64,000 bases of DNA from Squalus acanthias (lineage: Eukaryota), in the NCBI GenBank assembly GCA_030390025.1, contig CM059432.1, positions 3,100,001-3,164,000 of the forward strand, written 5' to 3'. The notes under the pieces were generated by a model. That model was not told where the DNA came from, searched no databases, and was given only the letters and a program-made list of their open reading frames with translations. Both the position numbers and the translations under genes were made by a program. This document shows, piece by piece, positions 24,365 to 60,769 of the stretch. Every line of letters begins with the position of its first letter. Position 1 is the first letter of the stretch.

Positions 24365-24870
24365 TAGAAAGAAATAAAGAACTTGCATTTATATAGCGCC
24401 TTTCATGGCCTCAGGCTGTCCCAAAGCGCTTCACAGCCAATGAAGTACTTTTGAAGTGTAGTCACTGTTGGAATGTAGGAAATGCAGCAGCCAATTTGCG
24501 CACAGCAAGCTCCCACAAACAGCAATGGGATAATGATCTGATCATCTGTTTTAGTGATGTTGTCTTCAAATAATGATGCGGAGATGCCGGTGTTGGACTG
24601 GGGTGGACAAAATTGAGAGCTCCGAAAGCTTGTGATTTCAAATAAAACTGTTGGACTATAACCTGGTGTTGTGCGACCTCTCAATTTTGTCTTCAAATAA
24701 TGCCATGGGATTTTGATTAAGTCCACCTGAGAGGGCAGACGGGGCCTCAGTTTAACGTCTCATCCGAAAGACGCCACCTCCGACAGTGCAGCACTCCCTC
24801 AGCACTGCACTGGAGTGTCAGCCTAGATTTTTGTGCTCAAGTCCCTGGAGTGGGACTTGAACCCACAACT
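24365..24870 (-). mobile_element. Deu-SINE hosting a Penelope-derived insertion
   Basis: Antisense Deu-SINE interrupted at 24576-24686. Confidence 0.8.
24576..24686 (-). mobile_element. Short fold-back Penelope-like insertion (copy A)
   Basis: 16-bp TSD ttgtcttcaaataatg (24560-24575, 24687-24702). Tail atgcggagatgccggtgttggactggggtg, then a short inverted pair gacaaaattgagag / ctctcaattttgtc. Confidence 0.8.
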
Positions 24871-25269
24871 GTGCATCTATCGGCGATCCCACAACACTAT
24901 TTCCATGAAGAGCAGGGGAGTACTCGCCGGTGCCCCGGCCAATATTTATCCCTCATTACATTCCTACATTACCACAGTGACTACACTTCAAAAGTACTTA
25001 ATTGGCTGTGAAGCGTTTTGGAACCTCCTGAGGTTGTGAAAGGTGCTGTAGAAATGCAAGTTAGTTCTTTCTTTCTCAACCAACACCCAAAAACAGTTTA
25101 TCTGGTCATTATCACATTGCTGTTTGTGGGACCTTGCTGTGCGCAAATTGGCTGCCACGTTTCCTACATCATTACAACAGTGAGTTTGGGATGTCACGAG
25201 GTTGTGAAAGATGCAATATAAATACAAGTCTTTCTATTAATGGAAGTGATCAAAGTGTTCGGTGAAGGT

Positions 25270-25968
25270 GTTGGGGTCTCAGCTGGGAGGTCTCCAGGGA
25301 GAAGCTGCTGGGGGAGGGGTCTCAGTCCAAGGGTCTCCAGGGAGACGGTGTTGGAGTCTGAGTCAGAGAGTCTCCAGGGAGACAATGCTGGGATCTCAGT
25401 CCTAGAGTCTCCATGTGAGAAGTTGTTGGGGCTCTCAGTCGGAGAGCCCCATGTGAGAAGGTGTTGGGGAATCTCCAGGGAGACAATGCTGGGGTCTCAG
25501 TCCCAGAGTCTCCATGGGAGAGGGTGCTGGGGAATCTCCAGGGAGACGGTGCTGGGGGTCACGGTCCGAGGGTCTCCAGGGAGAAGGTGCTGGGGTCTGA
25601 GTCAGAGAATCCCCAGGGAGACAATGCTGGGGTCTCAGTCCCAGTGTCTCCATGGGAGAGGGTACTGGGGAATCTCCAGGGAGACGGTGCTGGGGGTCAC
25701 GGTCCGAGGGTCTCCAGGGAGAAGGTGCTGGGGTCTGAGTCAGAGTGTCTCCAAACAGAAGGTGCTGGGGTCTCAGTCGGAGAGTCTCCATGTGAGAAGG
25801 TGCTGGGGTCTCAGTCCGAGGGTCTCCATGTGAGAAGGTGTTGGGGAATCTCCAGGGAGACAATGCTGGGGTCTCAGTCCCAGAGTCTCCATGGGAGAGG
25901 GTGCTGGGGAATCTCCAGGGAGACGGTGCTGGGGGTCACGGTCCGAGGGTCTCCAGGGAGAAGGTGTC
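25270..25968. repeat. Minisatellite with ~25- and 37/38-bp subunits and a 138-bp higher-order unit
   Basis: Subunits gggaga(c/a)ggtgctgggg...tctcca. gggagacaatgctggggtctcagtccc recurs at 25478, 25616 and 25855. Confidence 0.9.
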
Positions 25969-26826
25969 TTGCTAGCTCCCCAGTCAAAGCCTAGAGAGAA
26001 ATAAAAATCACTTTTTATTCTTTCAGATGCAAAGCAACCAGTTTTTCTGGTTATCAAAAACCAAGTATCGGCTAGAATTCTTGTCATTTGCAGCAGCAAT
26101 TGGAATAAAGAATGTATGCTCTTAATGCTTAAATTTAAATTTCATTCCCAATTTGATTTTCATATTGTTGCAAAAATCATATCACTGGAAACCGCAACAC
26201 TGTACACGATTGGTGGGGATTCTTTACTTAAAAGCTGTCTGCAGCTATAAGGTTACCAGTTAGCCCAGGACCTAAAGGTTCTCTTTGTAATTTATTTTCC
26301 ATTTCAATCACTAGAGAATAGCTCCAGTTTCACGTAAAAGGGCAGAGAGCTCGATGTCATCGGTCCCCTTTGGCAGTGCTGTGCTTGGCTGGATGTGAAC
26401 ACACTGCACCGAGCTCCATCTGGCCCACCCTTAACCCCACCACAAGCTACCTCAGCAGCTCATCCATCTCCCACAGCAGCCTGCTGCAGAGGGAACCATT
26501 CATATTCGGCCGCACTGACAGAATTCATCCATCCTCACCGTGTCCAAACCGCGGAGAACGGTAACCCCCCCCCCCCCCTCTGATGTGAGCATTTACAAAG
26601 TTGAGTATTTTGCAACAAAGAGGAAATTCAAATAAACTAGGCGATAATGTGCTCCCCCCCCCCCCCCCCCCAAGTAACCTCCTCCAAGAACTCTGCGTTC
26701 CTCTAATTCCGGCCTCTTTACACATCCCCGATTTCCATCGCCCAACCATCGGTGGCCGTGCCTTCAGCTGCCGAGGCCCCAAGCTCTGGAATTCCCTCCC
26801 TAAACCACTCCGCCTCTCTCCCCTGC

Positions 26827-29381
26827 TTTACGGGAATGGTAGCATAGCGGTTATGTTACTGGGCTAGTAACCCAGAGGCCTCGACTAATGATCCAGAGAC
26901 GCCAGTTCAAATCCCACCACTGGCAGCTGGGGAATTTAATTTCTATTAATGAAATAAATCTGGAATAAAAAGCTAGTGTCAGTAATGGTGACCATGAAAC
27001 TACTGGATTGTCATAAAACCCATCTGGTTCACCAATGTCCTTTAGGGAAGGAAATCTGCCGTCCTTACCTGGTCTGGCCTCTATGTGACTCCAGACCCAC
27101 AGCAATGTGGTTGACTCTGAACTGCTCTCTGAAATGTCCCAGCGAGACCCTCAGTTGTAACAAACCGCTACGAGAAACAATAAGAATTATTTTTGAAAAA
27201 CGCGGACTGCAGCGGTTCAAGAAGACGGCTCACCACCACCTTCTCGAGGGGCAATTAGGGATGGGCAATAAATGCCGGCCTTGCCAGCGACGCCCACATC
27301 CCAGGAACAAATTAAAAAAGAGGCTCCTTAAAACCTACCCTCTTTGACCAAGGTTATGGTCACCTGTCCCGAGATCGCCTTATGTGGCTCAGCAGTCAAA
27401 TTTTGTCTGATTACGCTCCTGTAAAGTGCCTTGGGATATTTCACTATGTTAACCGTGCTATATAAATACAAATTACTGTTGCTAAATTTAACAAGCTGAA
27501 GTTTTGACTAATCTAATGGAACTTTTGATGGTGTCCAGAAGCTGAACAAACATCAAGGTGGAAAAATGTGGATGGTTATGTAACCACGTGCATCAGGAAT
27601 AGAATTTGTTAGGCAAATGATACCATCGGAGATCATTCAATGGTTCACTAATGTCCTTTAGGGAAGGAAATCTGCTGCCCTTGCCCGGTCTGGCCGATAT
27701 GTGACTCCAGACCCACAGCAATGTGGTTGACTCTTAACCGCCCTCTGTGGTTCAAGAAGGGGGCTCACCACCACCTTCTCGAGGGCCGTTAGGGATGGGC
27801 AATAAATGCCTGGCCTTCCCAGCGACACCCACATCCCATGAACGAATTAAAAAAATAAAAAAAAATTGCCTCTCCTCATTCTTCCGTCACTTCACACTTC
27901 TCTGTGCTAAATTACATCAGCCATGCGTCTGCCCATCCTGAAGTTAGCTGACCGTCTGGGCAACACAGGAGGGCAGCAGGGTGGCAACAGCCTGGCACCT
28001 CACCACAGATAGGGGAAGGTTAGTGGACAGGTCATCCTGCCCCCCTCCCCCCTCGTGCCCCTCCTGGCAGTCTGTGTGAGAATGGCAGAAGCATGGCAAC
28101 AAGCTATCTGACTCGGGGAGGCAGGAATATAGGGCACCAATAAAGGATCAAAATAAAGGCGCAAAGGAACAGAATTCTTTCACTGTAGACTAACTACCTT
28201 TTTTTTAATAAAAGCTGAGAACGTGCAGCACAGAAACAGGCCATTCAGCCCAACTGGTCCATGCTGGTGTTTATGCTCCACACGAGCACCCTCCCACCTT
28301 ACCTTATCTAAGCCTATCTGCCTTTCTCCCTCATGTGTTTATCTAGCTTCCTCTTGCATGCATCTACACTATTCACCTCATCTACCCCCTGTGGGAGCGC
28401 GTTCCACATTCTCATCACTCTCTGGGTAAAGAAGTTTCTCCTGAATTCCCGATTGGATTTATTATTTTTGAACGTGTTTACAAAGCGCAGCGGTATAAAA
28501 AGATCAAAAGGAAAGAAGGAGCTGGCTTTTTAATCCAACAGTTTTCGGGGACAGAAGTACAATTTCCTGCCTCGCCAATGTTGGGATCATATCTAATCGC
28601 GTCTAGCCTACTGAACTTTGAATGATCTCCGATGGTATCATTTGCCTAACAAATTCTATTCCTGATACACGTGGTTACATAACCATCCACATTTTTCCAC
28701 CTTGATGTTTGTTCAGCTCCTGGACACCATCAAAACACCATCAAAAGTTCCATTAGATTAGTCAAAACTTCAGCTTGTTAAATTTAGCAACAGTAATTTG
28801 TATTTATATAGCACGGTTAACATAGTGAAATATCCCAAGGCACTTTACAGGAGTGCAATCGGACAAAATTTGATACCGAGCCACGCAAGGCGATATCGGG
28901 ACAGGTGACCATAACCTTGGTCAAAGAGGTAGGTTTTAAGGAGCCTTTTTAAAAATTTGTTCCTGGGATGTGGGCGTCGCTGGCAAGGCCGGCATTTATT
29001 GCCCATCCCTAATTGCCCCTCGAGAAGGTGGTGGTGGGACCGCCTTCTTGAACAGCTGCAGTCCGTGTTTTTTAAAATAATTCTTATTGTTTCTTGTAGT
29101 GTCTTGCTCGGCCATTTCAGAGGGCAGTTAAGAGTCAACCACATTGCTGTGTGTCTGGAGTCACACATAGGCCAGATTTCCCTTCCCTAAAAAAGGACAT
29201 TAGTGAACCAGATGGGTTTTTACAACAAACATCACCATTACTAATACTAGCTTTTTTTTTTAAATTCCAGATTTATTTCATTTAAATTCCACAGCTGTCG
29301 TGGGGGGATTTGAAGTCTCTGGATCATTAGTTCAGGCCTCTGGATTACTAGCCCAGTGACATAACCATGCTGCTACCGTAA
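26827..29381. repeat. Long inverted duplication (arms ~26827-27640 and ~28618-29381)
   Basis: Non-TE sequence 27480-27640 and the adjoining L2/SINE junction reappear reverse-complemented from 28618. Confidence 0.9.
26832..27320 (+). mobile_element. tRNA-derived SINE family 2, inserted in an L2 fragment (~26670-27480)
   Basis: tRNA-like head (ggtagcatagcggtta, agttcaaatccc). Its 3' tail (ggactgcagcggttcaagaag...gggcaataaatgccggccttgccagcgacgcccacatccc) is shared with the LINE family at 18659-19135. Confidence 0.8.
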
Positions 29382-29384
29382 CGC

Positions 29385-30960
29385 CAATATAAACCAAATG
29401 GTACAATTTTAAAGGGGGTGCAGGAACAGAGAGATCAGGGGCTGTACGTACACAAGTCTTTGAAGGTGGCAGGACAGTTTGAGAAGGATGTTAAAATAGC
29501 AATGGGATCCTTGGGTGTCTTGATAGAGAACGAGAGTACAAAAGCAAAGGAAAGTCACGCTAAACCTTTATAAAACACTAGTTAGGAATCAGCTGGAGTA
29601 TTGCGTCCAATTTAGGAAGAAATGTCAAGGCCTTGGAGAGGATGCAGAGGAGATTTACCAGAAGGTTACCGGGGATGAGGGACTTCAGTTAAGTGGAGAG
29701 ACTGGAGAAGCTGGGGTTGTTCTCCTTAGCGCAGAGAAGGTTAAGGGGAAATTTAATGGAGGCGTTCAAAACTATGAAGGGTTTTGATAGTTTGTTTCCA
29801 GGGAGAAAATTTGCCGGGCTGTGGGGGAAAGAGCAGGTGAAGTGAGACTAATTGGAGAGCTCTTTCAAAGAGCCAGCACAGGCACGATGGGCCAAATGGC
29901 CTCCTCCTGTGCTGTATGATTCTAATGCATTGTACCACAGGCATGACTAATTTAAAAAAAAAAACACATTGCATACCACAACACTGACTCAACAGCACAA
30001 AATAATTTTACTATTTTTTCTCCTCTACTGCAGAAGTATGGAATGATTGTGTGCCTGTGCAATTGTGCTAACCCAACCTATTCTAATCTATAAAGCTGTA
30101 AAATTCTCCGTAAAACCTTGAGATTTACTTCTTTTATGCTGTCTTGAGATTATCCAAGCTCAGTTCTCTTCTTCTCTTGGCTTAAATGCAAGGAAAAGAA
30201 ACAGGGGTCACAGTCCCGGATAAGGGTTCGGCCTTTTAGGACTGAGACGAAGAGGAATTTCTTCACTCAGAGGGTGGTGAATCTTTGGAATTCTCTGCCC
30301 CAGAGGGCTGTGGATGCTGAGTCGTTGAGTATATTCAAGGCTGAGATCGATAGATTTTTGGATTCTAGGGGAGCTGAGGTCGAAGATCAGCCATGGTCTT
30401 ATTGAATGGCGGAGCAGGCTCGAGGGGCCGTATGGCCGACTCCTGCTCCTAATCCTTATGTTCTTATGTAGACCCAATTAACGGTTTCGCTGTGTAGATT
30501 GGCTCCTCTTGGTTGAAGCACACAACAACTGCACTCAGGGTTTATTGGCCCGATTACCAGGGCTGTGTTAATCTTATAGAATCTGAGAACGGTACAGCAC
30601 AGAAGGAGGCCATTCGGCCCATCATGTCTGCCCCGACTCTTTCGAAGAGCGATCCAGTTAGTCCCACTCCCCCGCGCTCTCCCCATATCCCTGCAATTTT
30701 TTTCTCCTTCCAGTATTTATCCAACTCCCTTTTGAAGGCTGCTATTGAATCTGTCTCCACCACCCTCTCAGGCAGCGCGTTCCAAATCCCAACCACTCGT
30801 TGCGTAAAAAAGTTTTTCCTCGTGTCGTCTCTGGTTCTTTTGCCAATCACCTGAAATCTGTGCCCTCTGGTCATCGACCCTTCAGCCACTGGAAACAGTT
30901 TCTCTTTATTTACTCTCTGTATAAACCCTTCATGATTTTAAACACCTCTATCGAATCTCT
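29385..30960. mobile_element. Cluster of CR1 3' fragments (29385-29925 +, 30204-30467 +, 30577-30960 -)
   Basis: CR1 ORF2 C-terminal motifs and 3' tails. Confidence 0.8.
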
Positions 30961-31604
30961 CGATGGATATAAAATCCAAAAGGACATTAAGATGCAGATT
31001 CACTGTCTGGGTAGCACTTTAGGGCAGGGTGAAGACTGATTCTTTTTTTTTGGTTGTAGCATGCAACGCACCAACAAGCTGCTGTCCCCAACTCCCCTCC
31101 CTGAGCTCACTCGGACTGTGCAAATAGGTACTGGACTATAGAACAAAACAGGGCACCATACTGACAGAGCAGTCACTATGGAGAAGTCATAGCGTATTCA
31201 GGTAAAAACAGATAAGGTCAATCATCAAGGGTAAAACTAACCCGTTGCACCCAACCTAGTCATCATGGCCATATTTTACAACAGAAGTCATTAGATAATG
31301 ATAAAGAAAGACTTGCACTGCTATAGCACCACCTCAGGACGTCCCAAAGCGCTTTACAGCCAATGAGGTACTTCTGAAGTGTAGTCACTGTTCTAATGTG
31401 GGAAACGCAGTTAGTATCAGTAATGGTGACCATGAAACTCATAAAAGCCCACCTGGTTCACTGACGTCCTTTAGTGAAGGAAATCTGCCATCCTTACCCA
31501 GTCTGGCCTGCATGTGACTCCAGACCCACAGCAATGTGGTTGACTCTTAACTGCCCTCTGAAATGGCCCAGCAAGACACTCAGTTGTCAAGAAGGCAGCT
31601 CACC

Positions 31605-33189
31605 ACCATCTTCAAGAAAGGTGACAAGTCCAATTGCGGTAATTACAGAGGAGTTTCCCTGCTGTCTGCCACAGGGAAAGTCATCGCAAGAATCCTCCTC
31701 AATCGCCTTCTCCCAGTGGCCGAAGAGCTCCTCCCAGAGTCACAATGCGGATTCCGCCCACTAAGGGGCACAATGGACATGATCTTCACCACTTGTCAAT
31801 TACAAGAGAAATGCAGGGAACAGCACCAACCGCTGTACATGGCCTTCTTTGATCTCACAAAGGCCTTCGACACTGTCAACCGTGAGGGATTATGGAGTGT
31901 CCTCCTCAAATTCGGCTGCCCTCAAAAGTTTGTCACCATCCTCTGCCTGCTTCATGACGACATGCAAGCCGTGATCCTGACCAACAGTTCCACCACAGAC
32001 CCAATTCACGTACGAACCGGGGTCAAGCAAGGCTGTGTCATCGCACCAACGCGCTTCTCGATCTTCCTTGCTGCAATGCTCCATCTCACCCTCAGTAAGC
32101 TCCCCACTGGAGTGGAGCTAATTTACAGAACAAACGGGAAACTGTTCAACCTCCGTCGCCTCCAGTCCAGATCCAAGGTTGTCCCATCCTCTGTCGTCGA
32201 ATTACAGTATGCAGACGACGCTTGCGTCTGCGCTCACTCGGAGGTCGAACTCCAAACCATCGTCAACACCTTCACCGAAGCGTACAAGAGCATGGGCCTT
32301 ACATTAAACATCCGTAAGACAAAGGTCCTCTACCAACCTGCCCCCGCCACACAGTACTGCCCCCCGATTATCAAAATCCACGACAAGGCCTTGGACATCG
32401 TGGACCACTTTCCATACCTCGGGAGCCTACTGTCAACAAGGGCCGACGTCGACGACGAAGTCCAACACTGCCTTCAGTGTGCCAGTGCAGCCTTCGGTCG
32501 CCTGAGGAAGAGAGTGTTTGAAGACCAGGACCTCAAACCCGACACTAAGCTCATGGTCTACAGAGCAGCAGTGATACCCGCCCTGCTGTATGCCTCAGAG
32601 ACATGGACCATGTACAGCAGGCACCTCAAAGCACTGGAGAGGTACCACCAACGCTGCCTCCGCAAGATCCTGCAAATCCATTGGCAGGATAGGCGCACCA
32701 ACGTCAGTGTTCTTGCTCAGGCCAACATCCCCAGCATCGAAGCTCTGGCCACGCTCAATCAGCTCCGATGGACAGGTCACATCGTCTGCATGCCCGATAC
32801 AAGACTCCCAAAGCAAGCACTCTACTCGGAGCTCCGGCACGGCAAGAGAGCCCCAGGTGGGCAGAGGAAATGCTTCAAGGACACCCTCAAAGCCTCCTTG
32901 AAAAAGTGCAACATCCCCACCGACACCTGGGAATCCCTGGCCCAAGACTGCACAAAGTGGAGGAGAAGCATCCGGGAAGGCGCCGAACACCTCGAGTCTC
33001 TTCGCCGGGAGCAAGCGGAAGCCAAGTGCAGGCAGCGCATGTCAACCCAAGCACCCCACCCACCCAACCCTTCAACCACCATCTGCCCCACCTGTGACAG
33101 AGACTGCAGGTCCCGCATTGGACGCATCAGTCACCTGAGAACTCATTTTTAGTGTGGAATCAAGTCATCCTCAGTTCCGAGGGACTGCC

Positions 33190-33220
<31 letters not shown>
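31605..33220 (+). mobile_element. 5'-truncated RTE-clade LINE with uninterrupted RT ORF
   Basis: IFKKGDKSNCGNYRGVSLL, ESQCGFR, FFDLTKAFDTVNREGLW, GVKQGCVIAP and LQYADD motifs, a C-terminal C2H2-like CPTC...H...H, stop at 33152, a short 3' UTR and an (AAG)n tail at 33191-33220. Confidence 0.95.
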
Positions 33221-33525
33221 GAGTACTGAGGGAGTGCTGCACTGTCAGAGGTGACGTTAAACCAAGGCCCTGTCAAAGAAGAGCAGGGGCGTTCTCCCCG
33301 GTGTCCTGGTCAATATTTATCCCTCAACCGACATAACAAAAACAGATTATCTGGTCATTATCACATTGCTGTTTGTGGGAGCTTGCTGTGCACAAACTAG
33401 CTGCCGCATTTCCTACATTACAACAGTGACTACACTTCAAAACGTACTTCATTGGCTGTAAAGCGCTTTGAGATGTCCGGTGGTCGTGAAAGGCGCTGTA
33501 GAAATGGAAGTCTTTTTCTTTCTTT
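33221..33525 (+). mobile_element. Deu-SINE partial copy
   Basis: Deu core with deletions and an L2-like tail. Confidence 0.75.
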
Positions 33526-34184: not shown

Positions 34185-34760
34185 AAATCAAATCATTTCG
34201 GTAATTAGGTGCCTTTTTCATAAATTTGTGTTTGATTATCGAAGCATTTAATTTGCAGCCTTAATGGAGCCGTTTGCTTTCTTTGAATGTCGTTGGCAAT
34301 CAGAGAACCGTACAGCACGGAAGGAGGCCATTCGGCCCATCGCGTCTGCGCTGGCTCTTTTGCCAAAGTTGTTACTTTGCCAACAATTTTACCATCTGCC
34401 AGAATCACTTTGAATAATTGGGGTGGAGGGGGGATCTTCAATTTGTCGAAACCCATTACCATGGTTTAAAAGTGCCCTGGGCAGAGTAACAGGAGCAATA
34501 CCCTCAACCCCAATTATTCAAAGTGATTCTGGCAGATGGTAAAATTGTTGGCAAAGTAACAACTTTGGCAAAAGAGCCGGCGCAGTCTCGATGGGCCGAA
34601 TGGCCTCCTTCCGTGCTGTAAGGTTCTCCGATTACCAACGACATTCAAAGAAAGCACACGGCTCCACTAAGGCTGCAAATGAAATGCTTCCTTTAATCAA
34701 ACACAAATTAACCGGTCTAGTTTATGAAAAAGGCATCCAATTACCGAAATGATTTGATTT
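34185..34760. repeat. Fold-back inverted repeat (arms ~34185-34430 and 34501-34760, 70-nt loop)
   Basis: Direct reverse-complement match, e.g. gccaaagttgttactttgccaacaattttaccatctgccagaatcactttgaataattgggg vs ccccaattattcaaagtgattctggcagatggtaaaattgttggcaaagtaacaactttggc. Confidence 0.95.
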
Positions 34761-35989: not shown

Positions 35990-36044
35990 GCGGTCACTGA
36001 ATGGAGCCAGAGCGCCGCACGGCTGCACAGCTTCAAGGGAATCA

Positions 36045-48285: not shown

Positions 48286-48329
48286 GGGGGGGCGGGGCGG
48301 GGCGGGGGGTGGAGACCAATATCCCCCAG

Positions 48330-49835: not shown

Positions 49836-50049
49836 ACTGCTACATCAACAAAGTCTTGGTGCTTTCGACAAGACTTGGAGCTCTCCGAGGTGTGAAATCT
49901 GCCTTAATGGCGATTGAAATATTGACTTTACAAAAAGGATAAGGCACCGTTTTTCTGCACTGATTTAATTCGTCTTCCTGATGTTTGCACTGGAAGCTGA
50001 TTTGAACAGGAGGCGATGGATAACTTTAGTCCAGGGTCCCCTGTAATGG

Positions 50050-50605
50050 GGTATCTCTGTAATCTCCTTCAGCCCCACAACCTCCGGAGATATCTGCGCT
50101 CCTCTAATTCTACCCTCTTGATGCGGAGATGCCGGTGTTGGACTGGGGTGGACAAACGTGAGAAGTCGCATAACACCAGGTTATAGTCCAATAGTTTTAT
50201 TTGAAATCACAAGCTTTCGGAGCACTGCTCTTTCGTCAGGTGAAGTGAAGGAGCAGCGCTCCGAAAGCTTGTGATTTCAAATAAAACTGTTGGACTATAA
50301 GCTGGTGTTGTGCGACTTCTCACATTTGTCTACCCTCTTGAGCATCCCTGATTATAATCGCTCAACCATTGGTGGCTATGCCTTCAGCTTTGGAATTCCC
50401 TCCCTAAACCTCTCCGCCTCTCTACCTCTCTTTCCTCCTTTAAGACGCTCCTTAAAACCTACCTCTTGACCAAGCTTTTGGTCGCCTGCCCTAATTTATC
50501 CTTATGTGGCTCGGTGTCAAATTTTGTGTCTTAAAATACTCCTGTGCAGCACCTTGGGATGTTTACTACGTTAAAGGCACTATATAAATACAAGTTGTTG
50601 TTGTT
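50050..50605 (+). mobile_element. L2 3' fragment hosting a Penelope-derived insertion
   Basis: L2 terminus and (gtt)n tail, interrupted at 50122-50328. Confidence 0.8.
50122..50328 (-). mobile_element. Short fold-back Penelope-like insertion (copy B)
   Basis: 13-bp TSD tctaccctcttga (50109-50121, 50329-50341), inverted arms, one-sided tail, and a hammerhead-like motif on the minus strand at 50207-50243. Confidence 0.85.
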
Positions 50606-52099
50606 GGGACCTTATACATCCTTATTCTTTTAGTAAATCGTTCCTGTACAATTATGCAATTGTTCAATTGCAATGTGTCAAATTTTAATACGATAACGCT
50701 CCTGTGAAGCGCCTTGGGATGTTTTACTACGTTAAAGGCTCTTTATATTGAGCAGTAACATTTCCAAACAGAAAACAAATATTTTTCCATATATAAGGTA
50801 ATCGAGATTTTTGAGATGAAATCTGTGAAGAATCAACGTTCCGAATCAGGTACGACTTTCCATCTTTCCTTGGATAACTGGACGCCAGATTCTCAGCTGT
50901 GTGCGGCACTGGGGTCTTCGCACTCAAACCATCGTTAGTGGAGCGGAACCCAACTCAGAGAATGTTAAGAGCCCACTTGAGTATATTCAAGTACGCATGC
51001 TGCTATCAGATTACTTCTCCTGTCAAGCAGTGTCGCAGTGGGCAGCACCCTCGCCTCCGAGTCAGAAGGTCGTGGGTGCAAGTCCCACTCCAATGACCGG
51101 AGCACAAAAAAAAGTCGAGGTAGTACTGAGGGAGCGCAGCACTGCGCTGTCTTTTGAATGAGACGTTAAACCGAGGCCCTGTCTGCCCTCCCCTCCAAGT
51201 CACACACCATCCTGACTTAGAAATATATCGGCCGTTCCTTCATCGTCGCTGGGTCAAAATCCTGGAACTCCCTCCCTAACAGCACTGTGGGAGTACCTTC
51301 ACCACACGGACTGCAGCGGTTCAAGAAGGCGGCTCACCACCACCTTCTCGAGGGCAACTAGGGATGGGCAATTAATGATGGCCTTGCCAGCAACGTCCAC
51401 ATCCCATAAACGAATTTTAAAAAATCCCACGGGCACTATTTCGAAGAAGAGCAGGGGAGTACTCCCTGGTATCCTGGCCAATGTTTATCCCTCAACCAAC
51501 ATCACTAAAAACAGATTGTCTGGTCATTATCACGTTGCTGTTTGTGGGAGCTTGCTGTGCGCAAATTGGCTGCTGCGTTTCCCACATTACAACAGTGACT
51601 ACACTTCAAAAAAACTTCATTGGCTGTAAAGCGCTTTGGGACATTCTAAGGTCATGAAAGGTGCTATAGAAATGCAAGTCTTTATTACTGTGTTTTTTTG
51701 GAATCTAAAGGCTGGGATTAATAATCCAGAGAAGGCGAGTTCAAATCCCACCAAGGCAGTTTGAGAATTTGAATTCAGTTTAAAAAAAAAAAATCTGGAA
51801 ATAAAAAGCTGGTAAAAGTGACTATGAAGCTGTTGGATTGGCAAAAAACAGCTGGTTCACTGACGCCCTTCAGGGAAGGAAACCTGCCGTCCTTACCCAG
51901 TCTTGGCCTATATGTGCCTCCAGTTCCACACCAGTGCCCTGTGAAGTGACCTAGAAAGCCAGGATTTTGACCCAGCAACGATGAAGGAACGGCGATATAT
52001 TTCATAAGAACATAAGAAATAGGAGCAGGGGTCGGCCATTCGGCCCTTCGATCCCGCTCCGCCATTCAATAAGGTCATGGCTGATGATCTTCCTCTTCT

Positions 52100-53130
52100 A
52101 CCTGGCACAAAGGAAGATGGTTGTGGTGGTTGAAGGTCAATCATCACAGCCCCAGGACATCGCTGCAGGAGTTCTTCAGGGCAGTGTCCTAGGCCCAACC
52201 ATCTTCAGCTGCTTCATCAATGACCAACATAAGGTCAGAAATGGGGATGTTCGTTGATGACTGCACAGTGTTCAGTGCCATTCACAACTCCTCAGATAAT
52301 GAAGCAGTCCATGCCCGCATGCAACAAGACCTGGACGACGTTCAGGCTTGGGCTGATAAGTGGCAGGTAACATTCGCGCCACAGAAGTGCCAGGCAATGA
52401 CTATCTCCAACAAGCGAGAGTCTAACCACCTCCCCATGACATTCAACGGCATTACCATCGCCGAATCCCCCACCATCAACATCATGGGGGTCACCATTGA
52501 CCAGAAACTTAACTGGACCAGCCACATAAATACTGTGCAACAAGAGCAGGTCAGAGGCTGGGTATTCTGCGGCGAGTGTCTCACCTCTTGACTCCCCAAA
52601 GCCTTTCCACCATCTACAAGGCACAAGTCAGGAGTGTGATGGAATACTCTCCACTTGCCTGGATGAGTGCAGCTCCAACAACACTCAAGAAGCTGAACAC
52701 CATCCAGGACAAAGCAGTCCACTTGATTGGCACCCCATCCACCACCTTAAACATTCACTCCCTCCACCACCGGCGCACCGTGGCTGCAGTGTGTACCATC
52801 TACAAGATGCACTGCAGCAACTCGCCAAGCTTCTTCGGAAGCACCTCCCAAACCGGCGACCTCTTCCACCTAGAAGGACAAGGGCAGCAGGCGCATGGGA
52901 ACACCACCACCACCAAGTTCCCCTCCAAGTCACACACCATCCTGACTTAGAAGTATATCACCGATCCTTCATCATCGCTGGGTCAAAATCCTGGAACTCC
53001 CTCCCTATCAGCACTGTGGGAGAACCTTCACTGCACACGGCTCACCACCACCTTCTCAAGGCAACTAGGGATGGGCAGTAAATGCTGGCCTTGCCAGCGA
53101 CGCCCAGATCCCATAAATGAATAAAAAACA
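52100..53130 (+). mobile_element. Second CR1-clade LINE family, ~1-kb 3' portion
   Basis: QGSVLGP, MFVDDCTVF, QAWADKWQVTF and YKAQVRSVMEYSPLAW motifs plus the family 3' UTR. Confidence 0.9.
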
Positions 53131-55766
53131 AATCTCCACTTTCCTGTACTATCCCCATATCCCTTGATTCCCTTAATATCCAAAAATCTATCGATCTCGG
53201 TCTTGAATATACTCAACGACTGAGCAACCACAGCCCTCTGGGGTAGAGAATTCCAAAGATTCACCACCCTCTGAGTGAAGAAATTTCTCCTGACCTCAGC
53301 CCTAAATGGCCGACCCCTTATTCTGAGACTGTGACCCCTGGTTCGAGACCTCCCCAAGTCAGGATGGTGTGAGAGAGTTGGAGGTGAAATTGGAGGTGAT
53401 GGCGTTCCCATGCGTCTGCTGCGGGCTTGGGAGATGCTGTTGAAGAAGTTGTTGACGGCTTAAGGAGAAATAGTTGTTTCTTTAAAGAATTAACACCGTT
53501 TCATGGAGCGTATTGGGAGAAATGGACTCCCCTCTGGTGCTGAAGGTCGTCTTTCAGTAAATTCACCATCTGTCGGGTTTTGCTCTCCCAGAAATGGACT
53601 CTTGTGTCCATTGAACTACTGTCGCAATCCGTGGGGCTCACAGAACTTTTTCGCAAGTCTACTTTTTTTTTGTAGAAAGAGGTTTTTAAGTGAGGAACCA
53701 TCCTCAAGACCCGGTATAGTAACCTGGGACTACCTTGACCACGTTGTGCCGGCCATTGCTTACAGCGGTGGCAAATCGCCATCGCACGCAAGTGCTCGCT
53801 ATACGCGGTGGGGACTCTATTGGCCTGGGTATCTACCCTTTAAATTTAAATGACCCTGTCCCCAGGATTAGGAGTGGGAGCATAACGAAGCCAGACTGAT
53901 GGGGTGGGGTGGGGTGGGGGGGCTGGGGGGGGGGAGATACTACCCTGATGCACTCCCAGCAATGTAATGGCATTATGACAATCTCCAAGCCATGCGAGGG
54001 AGTGGCTGCTTTCATCTGGTGGTGGGGGAAAAGAGTCCAGAACAAGGGGGGGGAGAAGGGGGGCAGAACCTTAAAATTAGAGCCAGGCCGTTCAGGGGTG
54101 ATGTCAGGAAGCACTTCTTCACACAAAGGGTAGTGGAAATCTAGAACTCTCTCCCCCAAAAAGCTGTTGAGGCTGTGGGGGGTCAATTGAAAATGTCAAA
54201 ACTGAGATTGATAGATTTTTGTTGGGTAAGGGTATTAAGGGTTACGGAACCAAGGCAGGTGGATGGAGTTAAGATACAGGTCAGCCATGATCTCATTGAA
54301 TGGCAGGACAGGCTCGAGGGGCTGAATGGCCTCCTCCTGTTCTGTTCCTATGTTCTGCCACGGTAAGAAGTTCAGTCAGAAAATATTGTTTTAAAAAGTC
54401 ACAGTTTACAACAAGTGTTCATGGGCAAGTTTGTGCATGGATTGTGGTTTTTGTGTTCACAGAATGATACAGCGCAGGAGGCCATTCGGCCCATCGTGTC
54501 TGTGCCAGGCTCTTTTGAAAGAGCCATCAAATTAGTTCCACTCTTTCCCCACAGCCCTGTAAATTTCTCCTTTTCAAGTATTTATCCAATTCCCTTTTGA
54601 AAGTTACTATTGAATCTGCTTCCACCGCCCTTTCAGGCAGCGCATTCCAGATCACAGCAACTCTCTGCGTTAATAAAATAATTCTCCTCACCTCGCCTGT
54701 GTTCTGGTCTTGTGCAATCTGTGGTCGTCTTCAATACAAACCAGGTGAATTCCACAGTGCTGGGCGTCTCTAACCAAGTACAGAGCACTTTCAAGAAAGG
54801 ATAACCGTGGGCAATCTTGGGAGCCAGACAACGTGCAGTTTGTAGGAGATGGGATTATGACCTCGGAGCGAGAATTTGAACAACAAGAGATGTCTTTAGC
54901 TGATTAGCCATTCAGACTGAATTCCCCACAGAATTCAGACTGAATCCACATAAACAAGTACAGTGAATCGACGAGACTCTCCCAGAGAGAGATCTGGGGA
55001 AGGGAGCGGGGGAGGGAACGGTGTTTTTGCAGTTAGTGATTAATTGTCACTGCTTATTTTTTTGATCTCGAGACTGGCAAAACTAAAAAAGGTCAAATAC
55101 TCTGGTTGAAGAATTGAAAAGCAGCGCCAGATTTATTCAGCGGCCCAGCACCATGCTCCCAGAGGTCCTTGTTTGTACAGGGAGTGGCAGGTTTTCTACA
55201 TGCACAGGCATATACAATAGGCAACTTTCCCAAGCTAGTGCAGTGATGGATTATTCAAAGCTCGGCCGTTTCAATCCGACTACACTTTGTCCGAAGGTAC
55301 ACCACCAATCGCGTTGCTGTGCCTCAAATTAAAATGGGTTGACAGAGGATTTGTTAATTGGCTTAATTGCTTTCCTAAATGTAAAACGGTGGCAGACTGA
55401 GATACTGCCCAGAACAAATGTCTTGCTGGATGAAGTGACTACATTGCAAAAAAAACAAAAATTCCCCTGCCTTGTACCCATACTAATTTCTTAATAAAAT
55501 TACTTCCAAGTTTACCTTTTCAAGAGATGCAGGAATTGGTCTACTCAACAGCCAGAAGAATGCAGCCTCATTCAACTCATTGAGTTCGGGCTGAAAACTC
55601 TGGCTAGAGGCATTGCTGGAGGTTCTAATCACGTGACATTCTGACCACATGACATCTGTCACATGACACCTGATCACATGCCACCTGATCACGTGACATC
55701 TGCAAATGTCATTGCCTTGACCTTTGGGCCCCCTGTAGCTGAGTCTTTGCTTGTGGATTTAAGATA

Positions 55767-56050
55767 GCAGCAACAACTTGCATTTTTATAGCTCCTTTAA
55801 TGTATTAAATCGTCCCGGGGCGCTTCACAGGAGCGATTATCAGACAGAATTTGACACCGAGCCCCATAAGGAGATATTCGGACAGGTGACCAAAAGCTTG
55901 GTCAAAGAGGAAGGTTTTAAGGAGTGTCTTTAAAGGAGGAGAGGTTTAGGGAGGGAATTCCAGAGCTTAGGGCCCAGGCAGCTGAAGGCACGGCCGCCAA
56001 TGGTGGAGCGATTAAAATCAGGGATGCTCAAGAGGCCAGAATTGGAGGAG
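55767..56050 (-). mobile_element. L2 3' fragment
   Basis: Antisense L2 terminus, as at 17051-17495. Confidence 0.8.
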
Positions 56051-56225
56051 GGCTGAGAATGAGCACTGACTTAAACTCACAACCTCATCACTGAGGGTAA
56101 GAAACTCGGCGAGCTACGATGCTATGGCCAAATCAATACAATGGATTCTGCTTAAAGTGAAAAATCCACTGTTCCAACATCATAGAACTTACAAGATTAA
56201 GACTCCAGTTTTAGCGAAACTCCTA

Positions 56226-56813
56226 GGACTGGATTTTGATACTGGGGCGGGTTGGGGTCGTGTCATCCACTTTTCGTGTTATCCACCCGACTGCAATTGG
56301 ATGTGGGAGATTGATGCAATTTTCATCTAATTGGGCAATTGAGTTCCAGCATGTGGAACCCATGACCCAATTAGTGTTTTCAGTCTGAAAGTCGCCTCTG
56401 ATGATGTCATCATTGCTGCTGCATTGAAGGTCTTCAGAGACTGCCTGGCCTTTGCTGTGAGAGGACCTGCAAAATAAGCAGCGCCAGCCAGCGTCAACTA
56501 TCCATATCCAAATGTGCTCCCGCCAGGTTTCACATTCGTGGCTCAGAACAGGTGTGCTTCACGTAGAACAAGGGTTAAAATCACAAAGGCCTTTCAAAAT
56601 GGCATTATAGAGCCAATTTAGTGCTTGTTCAGGGCCTTAACAGCCTATCCTGCCACTTAGAGGCGGGACGCAGTCGGGACCAGCAGACACGATTTAGTGA
56701 AAATTGCGTGGAGGCGGGATGGAGGCGGACTTGTGCCCGCCCGCCAGTTTTCGCAATTTTAACCCCCCACACGCCTCCATACCCGCCTCCACGGGTCAAT
56801 GAAAATCCAGCCC
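56226..56813. mobile_element. MITE, PIF/Harbinger-like
   Basis: Imperfect TIR ggactggatttt / aaaatccagccc, flanked by cta / tta. Confidence 0.6.
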
Positions 56814-57387
56814 TTACAGTATGTGTTTGTGACGCAAATTACGTATTATATTCTAGGTGGACTCCACTGCTGTTTGTTTGTGCTGCGGTCAGTATTGCGA
56901 TTCTGTTTAGGATCGCTTTGCCCCATTTCTCGAGTTACACCGACAGCTTTTCCTTTGGCCGTGCCTCGGGATTCAGGTGCGCTGCGTCCATTTTGACCTT
57001 GTGCCGTACGTTATTATTGTCTGACTTTTATTTTGATATTTAGCTGCCTTAAGCAATGGGTTACCTTTCCCCAGTAAACGTCGTCGCCTCCATCCGGCAT
57101 TATCTGGCTGCCCTTTAATTCAGTGTCTGTCTCCGACGACCTCGCACAGGCTTCAAGCAGCCCACACCTAATCAGAGACGCTTACAGCACAGAAGGAGGC
57201 CATTCGGCCCCGTCGTGCCTGTACCGGCTCTTTGAAGGAGCCGTCGTGCTCAGTCCCACTCTGACCTCTCTGTCCTCGGCCTCTTACACTGTTCCAATGA
57301 TGCGGAGATGCTGGCTGTTGGACTGGGGTGGAACAAAAGTGAGAAGTCACACAACACCAGGTTATAGTCCAACAGCTTTATTTGAAA

Positions 57388-57424
57388 TCACAAGCTTTCG
57401 GAGCGCTGCTCCTTCGTCAGGTGA
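57388..57424 (-). ncRNA. Minimal type I hammerhead ribozyme motif (mirror copy)
   Basis: Exact reverse complement of 57540-57576. Confidence 0.7.
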
Positions 57425-57539
57425 AGTGAAGAGATGCATATAGTCACAGCATATATAAAGGGCAGTTAGAAAGATTAACTGTAATCATCTGGCAGTGTTC
57501 TCTGACTATATATGCTGTGACTATATGCATCTCTTCACT

Positions 57540-57576
57540 TCACCTGACGAAGGAGCAGCGCTCCGAAAGCTTGTGA
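57540..57576 (+). ncRNA. Minimal type I hammerhead ribozyme motif
   Basis: tcac-CTGACGA-a-ggagc-agc-gctcc-GAAA-gctt-gtga: stem I tcac/gtga, core CUGANGA, stem II ggagc/gctcc, GAAA and a palindromic AAGCTT stem III. Confidence 0.7.
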
Positions 57577-57910
57577 TTTCAAATAAAGCTGTTGGACTAT
57601 AACCTGGTGTTGTGCGACTTTCTCACTTTTGTTCCAATGAAGCTCAATGTAAGCTCGGGGAACAGCACCTCATCTTTCCATTGGGCACGTTACAGCCCTC
57701 TGGACTCAGCATCGAGTTCAACAATTTCAGACCATAACCTCGGCCCCTATTTTTTCACATGGCAGCTGTTGATGATCCTGCCATCCCCATTTGCAACATT
57801 TAATCTCTCCTGCCTTCCATCCTAGCACAGATCCTAGTCCCTTCTGTTCCTTCCTCCCCCTTTCCCTGCCTCTGCACCTGCTTAAAATCTGTTACATCTC
57901 TAACTTTTTC

Positions 57911-57951
57911 CAGTGCTGACGAAGGGTCGCAGACCTGAAACGTTAACTCTG
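57911..57951 (+). ncRNA. Minimal hammerhead motif of the second Penelope family
   Basis: CTGACGA (57916-57922), stem II ggtc/gacc, GAAA (57937-57940), palindromic AACGTT and a short stem I agt/act. Confidence 0.6.
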
Positions 57952-58296
57952 TTCCTCTCTCCACGGATGCTGCCTGACCTGCTGAGTGTTTCCAGCATTT
58001 TCTGTTGTTGTTTTAAATAAAGCTAGTAATATGGCCTATATGTGACTCCAGACCCACAGCAATGTGGTTGACTCTTAACTGCCCTCTAAAATGGCCGAGT
58101 GAGACACTCGGTTGTAACAGAACCGCAAGGAAAACCTCACCACACGGACTGCAGCGGTTCAAGAAGGCAGCCCACCACCAGCTTCTCGAGGGCAATTAGG
58201 GATGGGCAATAAATGCCGGCCTTGCCAGCGAATGCCCAATGGATAAAAAAAAAATTGCATTTGTACAGCGCCTTTAACGTAGTGAAACGCCCCAAG

Positions 58297-58433
58297 CAAT
58301 GTTCTCTTTAACTTTTTTTTTGGGGTGTGCGGTCCCTTTAAGGGGCTGCGCGGCCCATTCGAAATACCGCTCACGTGCGGTGTTTCCGATTTAAAAGCCG
58401 GTGAGCTGGCCTCGCGGCTTAATGGATACATTG
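58297..58433. mobile_element. hAT-like MITE inserted in an L2 tail
   Basis: Ends caatgttctctttaa / ttaatggatacattg and 8-bp TSD gccccaag / gtcccaag. Confidence 0.8.
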
Positions 58434-58465
58434 GTCCCAAGGCGCTTCACAGGAGTGTTATCAGA

Positions 58466-58975
58466 CAAAAGGATATACTTGCCATAGAGGGAGTGCAGCG
58501 AAGGTTCACCAGACTGATTCCTGGGATGGCAGGACTGTCGTATGAGGAGAGATTGGGTCGACTAGGCCTGTATTCACTAGCGTTTAGAAGAATGAGAGGG
58601 GATCTCATTGAAACGTATAAAGTTCTGACACGGCGAGACAGACTGGATGCAGGGAGGATGTTTCCCCTGGCTGGGGGGGGTCTAGAACGAGGGGTCACAG
58701 TCTCAGGATACAGGGTAGGACATTTAGGACTGAGATGAGGAGAAATTTCTTCACTCAGAGGGTGGTGAACCTGTGGAATTCTCTACCACAGAAGGCTGTG
58801 AATATATTTAAGAAGGAGATAGATATATTTCTAGACACAAAAGGCATCAAGGGGTATGGGGAGAGAGCGGGAATATGGTATTGAGATAGAGGATCAGCCA
58901 TGATCATATGGAATGGCGGAGCAGGCTCGAAGGGCCGAATGGCCGACTCCTGCTCCTATTTTTCTATGTTTCTCA
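58466..58975 (+). mobile_element. CR1 LINE 3' fragment
   Basis: KDILAIEGVQRRFTRLIPGMAGLSYEERL and the 3' tail. Confidence 0.9.
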
Positions 58976-59597
58976 AATTTGACACCACTTTAGCGTCATT
59001 ATAATACTTGATGTGCAGATAATTGTCAAAGAACTGGTTCCTTCAGTGGCCAGTAGACTTTGCCTTTTCACACTCGTCTGTCACTATTAGGAGACGCCAG
59101 TCATACACCTTTTTACCTTTGACAGATGCTCCTCAGTGTATCTCTTTGGATGATCCTCTGACCCTTTCCCTACCCGCACAGCTCTAATTACCAACCGCTC
59201 AGAGGGACGGAAGTTGTCTCAAGGTCGGAACTACCGAAACCCCTGGAAGGCCAGGCCTAATCTTTCTTCGTGCTTAATGGTCTGAGAGATTCTGCGATTT
59301 AATCAAAGGAACGGCAGGTTGTAGTGAAAAATCACAACTGCCATTGCTGCAAGCCTAGTCTGCACATCGACTCATAGAGGAGTCTGCCAACCACTTCTAA
59401 AAGGACATTCATTGTGTGTGCCCTTTTTCAATTTTATTTAGTGTTAACCATTAGACGGTTGGTAAATTTGGGAAAACCTTTTGTCTCACGCACTGTGAGG
59501 CCGAAACAAACCCTCTCCTTCTCCCTTTTTATTGTTTTAAGCTTATGTTGTTTTTATCTAAAGATAACCTATTCTAATTTCAATTCTGTAACCATTA

Positions 59598-60250
59598 GTC
59601 ATAGAATCAAAGAATCTTACAGCGCAGAAGGAGGCCACTCGGCCCGTTGAGCCTGTGCCAGCTCTTTTGGAAAGAGCTCTACAATTTAGTCCCACTCCCC
59701 CCCTGCTTTTTCTCCATAACCCTGCATGTTAATCTTCTTCAAACACATGTCCAATTGGCTTTTGAAAGTTACTATTGAATCTGATTCCACCACACTTTCA
59801 GGCAGCGCAATCCAGATCACAACAAGTCGCTGCGTTAAAAACATTCTCCTCATCTCCCCCTCTGGTTCTTTTGCCAATCACCTTAAATCTGTGTCCTCTG
59901 GTTACCAACCCTTCCGCCAATGGAAACAGTTTCTCTTATTTACTCTAACAAAACCCTTTCTGAACACCTCTATTAAATCTCCCCTTTCTGAACATCTCTA
60001 TCAAGTCTCTGCTCTAAGGTAAACAACCCCAGCTTCTCTCAGTCTCTCCACATAATTGAAGTCCCTCATCCCTGGCACCATTCTAGGAAATCTCTACTTT
60101 TTTTAATTCATTCTCGGGATGTGGGCGTCGCTGGCAAGGCCGGGATTTATTGCCCATCCCTAATTGCCCCTTGAGACGGTGGTGGTGAGCCGCCTTCTTG
60201 AACCGCTGCACCCTCTCCAAGGCCTTGACATCCTTCCGAAAGTGTGGTGA
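59598..60250 (-). mobile_element. CR1 LINE 3' fragment with an inserted family-2 tail
   Basis: Antisense LTQRLVVIWIALPE and the 3' UTR. Confidence 0.8.
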
Positions 60251-60359
60251 CTTTAATCAGCATGATCCTGACGGAAACCAGACTGAAGGATTTTCGAATA
60301 GAGAACGGTGGGATGATTTTGGGGAGGAAAGGAGATTAAAGACAAAGGTATTTAAGGAT

Positions 60360-60557
60360 GATGTGGAGATGCCGGTGTTGGACTGGGGTGGACAAATGTG
60401 AGAAGTCGCACAACACCAGGTTATAGTCCAACAGCTTTATTTGAAATCACAAGCTTTTGGAGCGCTGCTCCTTCACCTGACGAAGGGGCAGCAGCTCCGA
60501 AAGCTTGTGATTTCAAATAAAACTGTTGGACTATAACCTGGTGTTGTGCGACTTCTC
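60360..60557 (-). mobile_element. Short fold-back Penelope-like insertion (copy D)
   Basis: 12-bp TSD gtatttaaggat (60348-60359, 60558-60569), inverted arms with essentially no spacer, and a hammerhead-like motif on the plus strand at 60473-60510. Confidence 0.85.
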
Positions 60558-60769
60558 GTATTTAAGGATAATGGAGCGATGAAGTGTGGGCTTTTTAAGA
60601 AGGGGGTAATTATGCCGGTTTTGAAGTGGGTGGGAAACATTGCTTGAGGAAATAGAGAGATTGATTATCTTGGTGAGCATTGGACCAAAGAGAGTTAGTT
60701 GAGTGATCAGGAACCAAGTGCCTGAAAGGGTGGTGGAAGCAGATTCAACAGTAACTTTCAAAAGGTCCC

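Follow-up and report, generated by a model that had tools for sequence, protein, structure and literature searches.

Four short shark insertions built as head-to-head pairs of one repeat end, likely pseudo-LTR-only Penelope-like elements

The window analyzed here, a 64,000-nt stretch of shark DNA, contains four short insertions (copies A to D; 111, 207, 329 and 198 bp) that are related to each other by blastn at word size 7; the same search returned no fifth copy in the window. None contains an ORF, and our base-level reading covers these four copies. Each consists of head-to-head arms, one inverted and 5'-truncated relative to the other, and carries an unpaired tail on one side only (35, 31, 35 and 40 nt in A, B, C and D). 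Each is also bounded by its own target-site duplication (TSD), whose length varies among copies. The features are as follows.

24560..24575, no strand: left TSD of copy A, 16 nt exact (13 nt unless the ~50-nt deletion in the host SINE predates the insertion)
24576..24618, minus strand: tail of copy A (35 nt unpaired) plus ~8-9 nt of antisense arm
24619..24686, plus strand: tail-less arm of copy A, with the hammerhead 3' half and AATAAA, running to the inner end; ~60 nt of it are missing from the left arm
24687..24702, no strand: right TSD of copy A; begins with the same 5 nt with which the element continues at the inner site
50109..50121, no strand: left TSD of copy B, 13 nt exact
50122..50250, minus strand: tail-bearing arm of copy B (tail 50122-50152), extending upstream beyond the right arm by 16 nt
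50207..50243, minus strand: minimal hammerhead of the copy B left arm, in which 10.1-11.1 is an A.C mismatch
50247..50328, plus strand: tail-less arm of copy B, with 4-nt centre microhomology at 50247-50250 (GAAG)
50329..50341, no strand: right TSD of copy B, with an inner-site match in 6 of its first 7 nt
57248..58010, plus strand: host of copy C, the 3' end, truncated on its 5' side, of a second Penelope-like family, with a GIY-YIG C-terminus
57290..57300, no strand: left TSD of copy C, 11 nt exact; its last 4 nt equal the family outer end (57297)
57301..57457, minus strand: tail-bearing arm of copy C (tail 57301-57335); in sense RNA, an 11-bp 3' stem that the tail closes
57388..57424, minus strand: minimal hammerhead of the copy C left arm, intact
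57455..57629, plus strand: tail-less arm of copy C
57458..57506, plus strand: loop of copy C, 49 nt of family sequence found upstream of just the right arm
57507..57539, plus strand: TATATAT, 21 nt, then TCACT in copy C; a possible pseudo-LTR (pLTR) TATA/initiator layout, offered as a lead only (compare Pen2a_Av)
57540..57576, plus strand: minimal hammerhead of the copy C right arm, intact
57630..57640, no strand: right TSD of copy C; begins with the same 7 nt with which the left arm continues at the inner site
60348..60359, no strand: left TSD of copy D, 12 nt exact
60360..60474, minus strand: tail-bearing arm of copy D (tail 60360-60399), with a truncated hammerhead and changed GAAA
60471..60557, plus strand: tail-less arm of copy D, with 4-nt centre microhomology at 60471-60474 (CTTC), extending upstream beyond the left arm by 11 nt
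60473..60510, plus strand: minimal hammerhead of the copy D right arm, intact, with one G.U pair in stem II
60558..60569, no strand: right TSD of copy D, 12 nt exact

An earlier note on this DNA had described four ORF-less insertions with 11-16 bp TSDs and a one-sided, unpaired tail of about 30 nt. The exact flanking repeats and the 31-40 nt tails in all four copies bear this out. The duplication around copy B is a true one, as the site is single in four of four paralogous empty repeats of the window. Copy C splits a GIY-YIG coding fragment whose alignment picks up again across the TSD; this host has its own minimal hammerhead (57912-57948). The SINE that hosts copy A lacks ~50 nt at the left TSD relative to five of five paralogs, and the duplication is therefore either 13 or 16 nt. 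No paralogous empty site for copy D was found within the window.

The centre junctions of the four copies all differ (the microhomology of copy C, 57455-57457, is 3 nt), so the copies share no common master palindrome, in agreement with the note's proposal that junctions are made anew at each insertion. Its description of same-sequence arms that fold back at a different point in each copy holds for the differing points but not for the fold-back itself: in A, C and D it is the tail-less arm that owns the loop, with ~60, 49 and 11 nt, respectively, that the tail arm lacks. Because the tail arm in turn has the tail, neither arm in these three copies is a full copy of the other. Copy B shows the reverse asymmetry, with 16 extra nt on the tail arm. 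Copy A, previously listed as a palindrome, is barely one, its arms having just 8-9 nt in common. The shared orientation of the four tails, which the note records, is a 1-in-8 chance event and carries no evidential weight. Copy C is the youngest-looking, with 2 differences in 123 nt. Private variants common to both arms of copy A, together with an extra base in the left arm of copy C that mirrors the target, suggest that part of one arm was templated by the other, and later deletion at the palindrome centre could account for the asymmetric loops. The predicted hairpins are well beyond chance (copy C, -259.8 kcal/mol, z -32; copy B, -159.5 kcal/mol, z -21).

The earlier note also placed a hammerhead ribozyme motif in the arms. 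The whole core, CTGACGA...GAAA-GCTT, is present in four of the eight arms and intact in three (C left, C right and D right); the remaining four lack a whole core. The 5' half is missing in A right, B right and D left, the last with its GAAA changed too, and A left has no hammerhead part. The three intact motifs display the core bases, the unpaired base after A9, the G10.1-C11.1 pair and the palindromic 15.2-16.2 of minimal hammerheads (min-HHR). Six of 11 pairs differ on both sides from the hammerhead of the EN-coding neighbour family, a covariation based on a single outside sequence and on a structure itself derived from the same rows. The Rfam check that had been recommended gave no support: no hammerhead model matched at gathering score in the window, and no Rfam hammerhead family appeared at E values up to 10 in 57250-58050 or 57515-57600. 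With the MIR821 hairpin model the copies reach 142 bits, under its cut-off of 249; a microRNA identity was rejected, the Rfam microRNA matches being generic hairpin matches.

Folding predictions for copy C, with the 5' end set at 57427, give stem II a pairing probability of 0.02-0.07 without the tail and 0.97-0.99 with it, a dependence that is not predicted for the damaged motif of copy B. Within the read-through hairpin the predicted pairing probability of the hammerhead stem is 0.0, and self-cleavage is predicted to be blocked when the ribozyme sits inside the hairpin. A self-duplex of the palindromic core is predicted to be weak (-6.5 kcal/mol).

Several traits of EN-positive (EN+) Penelope-like elements (PLEs) are found together in these copies: an inverted, 5'-truncated pLTR, a one-sided tail of 30-40 bp with two fixed ends, a short TSD of variable length and a hammerhead motif in the pLTR. 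This anatomy, along with published descriptions of such elements (PMC3846280, PMC4209133, PMC8557442 and PMC11167929), supports the Penelope-like origin and minimal hammerhead that had been proposed. The expected full-length partner did not emerge. An RT plus GIY-YIG ORF linked to the repeat was sought in the window and by protein-frame searches and was not found; membership consequently rests on non-coding anatomy. In tblastn of 25 PLE-search matches against the window, only the second Penelope-like family was recovered. No longer protein was matched by the arm frames of C (47 aa) and B (45 aa), nor any Pfam family by the 47-aa frame, each search being weak evidence. Exact-pattern scans of viral, prokaryote-genome and metagenome collections returned 0 loci, and a shark PLE protein query gave no confirmed metagenome locus. 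A literature search, with subscription papers, Repbase and Dfam outside its scope, found nothing on this shark family or its editing. Searches of 12 of the 24 other supplementary files of PMC8455134 gave no match to the family; supplement 20, a whale-shark repeat library, may already contain it.

Thousands of contigs in public runs have the same two ends, consistent with the high abundance anticipated by the note. Contigs that stop at 57297 and continue into long unrelated flanks number 37, 5 and 4 in X1, X8 and X12, and 372 contigs in X11 end at the inner site with such flanks. The X1 row for the inner end (50 contigs at 57333) also takes in contigs that do have the tail but are broken by the extra base of copy C. 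Summed contig depth reaches 5.7 and 8.6 million, values that do not represent copy number. Runs X18-X20 contributed small shares and do not enter these counts. X11 also contains joints from 57423 to 57342 (depth 135), a tandem-like return from the hammerhead start to the inner site. A transcription start at the end cluster ~57423-57427 was considered and left unused, as the loose ends at 57425 in X11 may be a length variant.

The element has matches to both TSD ends, at two sites ~35 nt apart. At the inner site, copies A to D match at 5, 6, 7 and 4 of 7 positions, against window backgrounds of 0.015, 0.0019, 0.0001 and 0.077, before allowing for ~10 possible registers; the match in copy D is not contiguous. 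From the outer end to where stem II begins is 116 nt. Taken together, we consider it probable that the four elements, as head-to-head pairs of one repeat end, are pLTR-only Penelope-like insertions whose reverse transcription began at both ends of a staggered cut. A GIY-YIG endonuclease would cut the two strands 11-16 nt apart. One 3' overhang would then anneal over 2-4 nt to the outer of the two RNA sites, which lies at the tail end, and the second over 0-7 nt to the inner site, 31-40 nt upstream; the matches can be read in the sequence, and priming from them is our proposal. Because the overhangs would pair at different RNA sites, the tail would appear on one side only. As the anatomy records, the two cDNAs end early at differing points and meet at 1-4 nt of microhomology; they may join directly, or one may snap back and then anneal to the other, with products that look alike. 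In a read-through transcript the arms are predicted to pair over 80-130 bp and to bury the hammerhead in the duplex; such copies would therefore not self-cleave. The duplex would be a likely ADAR substrate, as suggested by a signature described below.

The main competitor is a single primer: cDNA synthesis begins at the tail, the cDNA then snaps back and serves as its own template up to the inner site, and later centre deletions produce the asymmetric loops. Self-priming has been proposed for Penelope palindromes (PMC3846280), copy B fits directly, with its loop on the tail arm and a tail arm that stops near the possible initiator, and the private variants shared between arms in A and C point the same way. 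We nevertheless regard it as unlikely, since A, C and D would each require a secondary asymmetric deletion, the youngest-looking copy still has its 49-nt loop from the tail-less arm, the fixed inner end in hundreds of contigs goes unexplained and the PAc element extends both strands from two sites in vitro (PMC11167929). The separate hairpin retroelement family built by one fold-back, as the note had it, is not supported; the four copies resemble inverted pLTR remnants that need two-end priming. In L1-type twin priming, the inverted part copies a different, upstream RNA segment; this model was set aside, as the arms of B, C and D span the same segment and copy A alone resembles it.

Less probable still is that a non-autonomous hairpin element, or a retrozyme, passes through transcription and copying with its palindrome already in place or as an RNA circle. 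The very high abundance, the lack of an ORF in four copies, the X11 joints, which are as expected of head-to-tail units, and the pLTR origin of animal retrozymes (10.64898/2026.07.22.740005) would suit this reading; four different centre junctions, copies that are head-to-head and not head-to-tail and a hammerhead predicted to be unfolded in the hairpin would not. That short, non-coding, palindromic and abundant copies might constitute a DNA-transposon MITE with long inverted repeats is scarcely credible: their termini are not inverted repeats (1-4 matches of 20), TSDs vary from 11 to 16 nt, internal structure differs copy by copy and a conserved hammerhead core is present. The note's exclusion of a MITE thus stands. 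Priming from both ends of a staggered cut remains the reading we prefer.

Substitutions among the contigs bear on the fate of such hairpins in RNA. Counting rows that exceed 1% in some run, A>G/T>C is higher in RNA-labelled X8 than in DNA-labelled X1 from the same organism in 10 of 10 rows (other changes, 0 of 21), and in RNA-labelled X12 it is higher in nine of 10 (other changes, 0 of 21); the contigs compared come from different samples, and the RNA label is the tool's guess. This enrichment, in RNA-labelled runs from two organisms, is an ADAR signature. It comes from related copies and is not assignable to the self-hairpin copies, but such hairpins likely feed RNA editing.

The architecture itself has already been published (2013-2024), and as stated the finding is nothing unusual. 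It is useful as a test bed: in these tiny copies, 330 bp are enough to contain the two priming sites together with the centre join, and for that reason a table covering the whole genome could discriminate between two-ended priming and a single snap-back. Should matched DNA and RNA bear out the A>G signal, hairpins made by insertion would count as a large cellular dsRNA source in sharks. For annotation, such copies are best classed as Penelope ends, not as MITEs or microRNA precursors. We speculate further, at somewhat less than even confidence, that every insertion records two-ended, microhomology-guided priming, making this abundant family a natural library that would settle the origin of inverted ends and one-sided tails; that each is a self-contained dsRNA hairpin and the family a main shark ADAR substrate, comparable to inverted Alu pairs in primates, which would explain Penelope hyper-editing in lizards and frogs; and that the tail is a folding switch, with the hammerhead forming only when the tail is in the RNA.

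Among known systems, head-to-head pLTRs with a tail on one arm are described for EN-positive PLEs such as Pen2a_Av (PMC3846280, PMC8557442), and the formation of PLE inverted ends and tails has been called undefined (PMC8557442). The shark copies share with Pen2a_Av and its relatives the head-to-head pLTRs, one-arm tail, short variable TSDs and TATA followed by TCACT ~20 nt away. They differ in having no ORF between the arms, at 111-329 bp, and in their TSDs (11-16 nt versus 8-10 nt in the rotifer cases).

PAc, a Poseidon-type element of Anolis carolinensis, offers the closest biochemical parallel. In vitro both strands are cut and extended from two sites, RT starts 111-118 nt from where stem II begins, and the tail is bounded by the two RT start sites; this 2024 work left later steps unvalidated (PMC11167929). 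The shark family likewise has a hammerhead in the pLTR, a tail between two putative start sites, an AC-rich stem-loop and proposed use of both strands, and its distance from outer end to stem II (116 nt) falls within the PAc range. The PAc ORF begins at stem II, whereas no ATG frame begins there in the shark family. PAc initiation is also reported to be non-homologous to the cut DNA, unlike the shark TSD ends, where as many as 7 nt agree with the RNA sites, a difference that counts against our proposal (PMC11167929).

The shark motif resembles the min-HHR of metazoan PLEs (PMC4209133) in its core, extra base between 9 and 10.1, G10.1-C11.1 pair, 4-bp helix I and loopless palindromic 15.2-16.2. 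Its helix II, as judged from sequence and folding, is 5 bp rather than 7-8. Motif pairs 100-700 bp apart on opposite strands were seen in that study, which, as far as its covered text goes, does not name sharks among the hosts. Non-LTR retrozymes, present in one chondrichthyan (10.64898/2026.07.22.740005), are similarly non-coding pLTR derivatives with a type I hammerhead, but they form head-to-tail tandems, whereas the four shark copies are head-to-head. Hyper-edited repeats include lizard Penelope and the palindromic Xenopus Harbinger (PMC5625713) and X. tropicalis Penelope (PMC10636886). In the available parts of both papers, Penelope editing is not tied to insertion-made palindromes and the shark family is unnamed. 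The likeness lies in repeat-derived dsRNA with an A-to-G excess, and in a repeat that folds on itself with no need of an inverted neighbour.

The window DNA is eukaryotic and rich in repeats (GC 43-58%), contains LINE reverse transcriptase (RT) fragments, and encodes a peptide whose named relatives in a protein search come from sharks and one ray, which makes an elasmobranch host likely. A sequence search of the window recovered the four related insertions reported in an earlier note (copies A, 24576-24686; B, 50122-50328; C, 57301-57629; D, 60360-60557), with mutual similarity of 89-98% over their common parts and no fifth relative within the 64 kb. These hairpin insertions are real and of a kind already known; what this analysis adds is their two-ended junction anatomy in four copies, an editing signature and a predicted tail-dependent fold. 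Other features of the window are as follows.

57248-58010 (+): 3'-terminal, 5'-truncated fragment of a second Penelope-like family; its GIY-YIG C-terminus matches shark RT+GIY-YIG proteins
57912-57948, within the 57248-58010 (+) fragment: minimal hammerhead of the second family
34241-34690: two inverted 190-nt arms (95%) separated by 70 nt, not of the hairpin family
about 9750-14700: a ~1,986-nt unit present three times head to tail, its copies 97-98% alike over the 300 nt compared
31551-33149 (+): well-preserved LINE fragment whose 533-aa open frame encodes an RVT_1 domain
61320-62732: two G-rich minisatellites, units of 35-41 nt and 10/16/26 nt, with strong GC skew

A piece of a common dispersed repeat lies in both arms at 34241-34690, and the ~1,986-nt unit is composed of dispersed repeats. 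The second-family fragment has no inverted arm. In three predicted host proteins annotated as a GPCR, an ATP synthase c precursor and one divergent kinase isoform (P0003, P0006 and P0020), Penelope endonuclease sequence forms the end or the whole, likely through gene-model read-through.

Exact flanking repeats of 16, 13, 11 and 12 nt (A-D) agree with the target-site duplications (TSDs) of 11-16 bp noted previously. That of A may be 13 rather than 16 nt, as its host SINE is missing ~50 nt right at the left repeat (24560-24575) relative to five of five paralogs; this deletion may be older than the insertion or concurrent with it. The TSD sequence of B is single in all four paralogous repeats lacking the insertion. 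At two bases the TSD of B (50109-50121) differs from these empty sites, both shifts being toward the element's inner site, the upstream end of the tail. Copy C interrupts the C-terminal GIY-YIG coding stretch of the second family, whose matching proteins contain RVT_1 and GIY-YIG, and the protein alignment picks up again across the duplicated bases. For D, no paralogous empty site was found in the window.

Each copy consists of an antisense repeat end with an unpaired tail (35, 31, 35 and 40 nt in A-D), and then of that end again in sense, without the tail. All four tails lie to the left, the single orientation described earlier, which would arise by chance once in eight and was not counted as evidence. 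The center junction is unlike in every copy, with overlaps of 4, 3 and 4 nt in B, C and D and, read off the sequence, ~1 nt in A. The tail arm reaches 16 nt farther upstream than the other arm in B, whereas the tail-less arm extends beyond the tail arm by 11 nt in D and ~60 nt in A. Beyond 57457, left-arm contigs from four of four public sequencing runs (40, 88, 9 and 5 contigs) run into the reverse complement of the 49-nt loop of C, indicating that this loop is family sequence belonging to the tail-less arm. From loop ownership in A, C and D, both arms contain sequence missing from the opposite arm in three of the four copies.

The target ends also resemble the element. At the right TSD, 5, 6, 7 and 4 of the first 7 nt in A-D match the element continuation (window background 0.015, 0.0019, 0.0001 and 0.077, each to be multiplied by ~10 for register), and the terminal 3, 3, 4 and 2-3 nt of the left TSD are identical to the family's outer end. 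In 24 of the 465 loose-end rows, contigs carrying long flanks of unrelated sequence end at the outer site, 57297, in runs X1 (at least 37), X8 (at least 5) and X12 (at least 4), and at the inner site in X11 (at least 372) and X1 (at least 50, an impure set that includes tail-bearing contigs). The X11 inner-site loose consensus retains 10 family letters and is scrambled afterwards. Several X11 contigs return from 57371-57423 to the inner site (57342), resembling head-to-tail partial tandems.

We consider it probable that the copies were made by a staggered cut at the target, after which one overhang would prime at the outer RNA site and the other at the inner one, and the cDNAs would halt early and join at microhomology. 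Our first reading, of arms as strictly two independent cDNAs, was loosened by private variants common to both arms of A and an extra, target-like base in the left arm of C; these allow one cDNA to snap back on itself before annealing to the other, with the same end product. Fold-back from a single primer, with deletions later, is an unlikely source of such arms. A self-copying palindrome or retrozyme fits poorly and is improbable. The poorest fit is a MITE, which we regard as scarcely credible: inverted-repeat matches at the termini number only 3, 3, 1 and 4 of 20 in A-D, so the termini are not inverted repeats.

A hammerhead descriptor scan of both strands of the 64 kb gave four matches, three in copies A-D; the fourth, at 57916, belongs to the second family. 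The left arm of B retains the core with one mismatch in stem II. The Rfam hammerhead covariance models proposed as a check do not match the motif. The motif shows the traits given for PLE minimal type I hammerheads (min-HHRs) in PMC4209133. Relative to the second-family hammerhead, both members of 6 of 11 pairs are altered, and pairing holds in 95.5% of cells (0 of 500 shuffles), a covariation based on a single outside sequence and a structure drawn from the same rows. Folding predictions for the sense RNA of C form stems I and II only with the tail closing an 11-bp 3' stem, a dependence not predicted for the damaged motif of B. In a transcript spanning all of C both stems have predicted probability 0.0, because the hairpin reaches -259.8 kcal/mol. 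Each strand of a copy carries one sense motif, and thus lacks the tandem dimer that min-HHRs need. With stems unformed and no dimer, copies A-D are predicted to be inert as ribozymes.

Some of copy C is present in 20 of the 24 runs listed, and half or more of its words in 15 of these, from five organisms; contigs aligned to the 218-nt left arm number 9,820 (X1), 22,594 (X11), 1,733 (X8) and 1,416 (X12). A>G or T>C accounts for 8/12 places with a variant of at least 1% in X8 and 8/11 in X12, both RNA-labeled, against 1/12 in DNA-labeled X1 and 6/26 in X11, one A>G per run being a consensus difference. The 33 rows listed, chosen by at least 1% in any run, comprise 10 A>G/T>C and 21 other rows once two consensus or subfamily sites are left out. 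X8 exceeds X1, from the same organism, in 10/10 A>G/T>C rows (median 28-fold) and 0/21 others (median 0.03-fold), and X12 exceeds X1 in 9/10 and 0/21, the contigs coming from different samples, the RNA label being an automatic guess and the signal not being assignable to self-hairpin copies. The three strongest X8 sites (6.3, 4.5 and 3.8%) are preceded by a 5' U, which fits the ADAR preference for 5' U; one 3.1% site follows a 5' G. PMC5625713 and PMC10636886 describe hyper-editing of Penelope in lizard and in X. tropicalis, as well as editing of Harbinger self-palindromes.

On all non-coding membership criteria tested, the hairpin copies behave like a PLE end, in keeping with their earlier placement near Penelope. 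The defining RT+GIY-YIG ORF was not linked to the family by frame and protein searches or by tblastn against the window, so the family is, judged from its non-coding anatomy, likely a Penelope-like element. Searches of the accessible literature returned nothing on this shark family. In PMC3846280 and PMC8557442, inverted pseudo-LTRs with a one-sided tail are already published, and the shark copies share this arrangement; opposite-strand min-HHR pairs 100-700 bp apart appear in PMC4209133. For the anole PLE, PAc, PMC11167929 describes both strands being cut and extended, a tail bounded by two start sites, and RT initiation at a distance of 111-118 nt from the ORF start, where stem II also begins. 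The shark outer end is similarly placed, with 116 nt between it and the base that opens stem II. In contrast, the PAc start site is termed non-homologous to the cut DNA there, whereas the shark TSD ends match the element.
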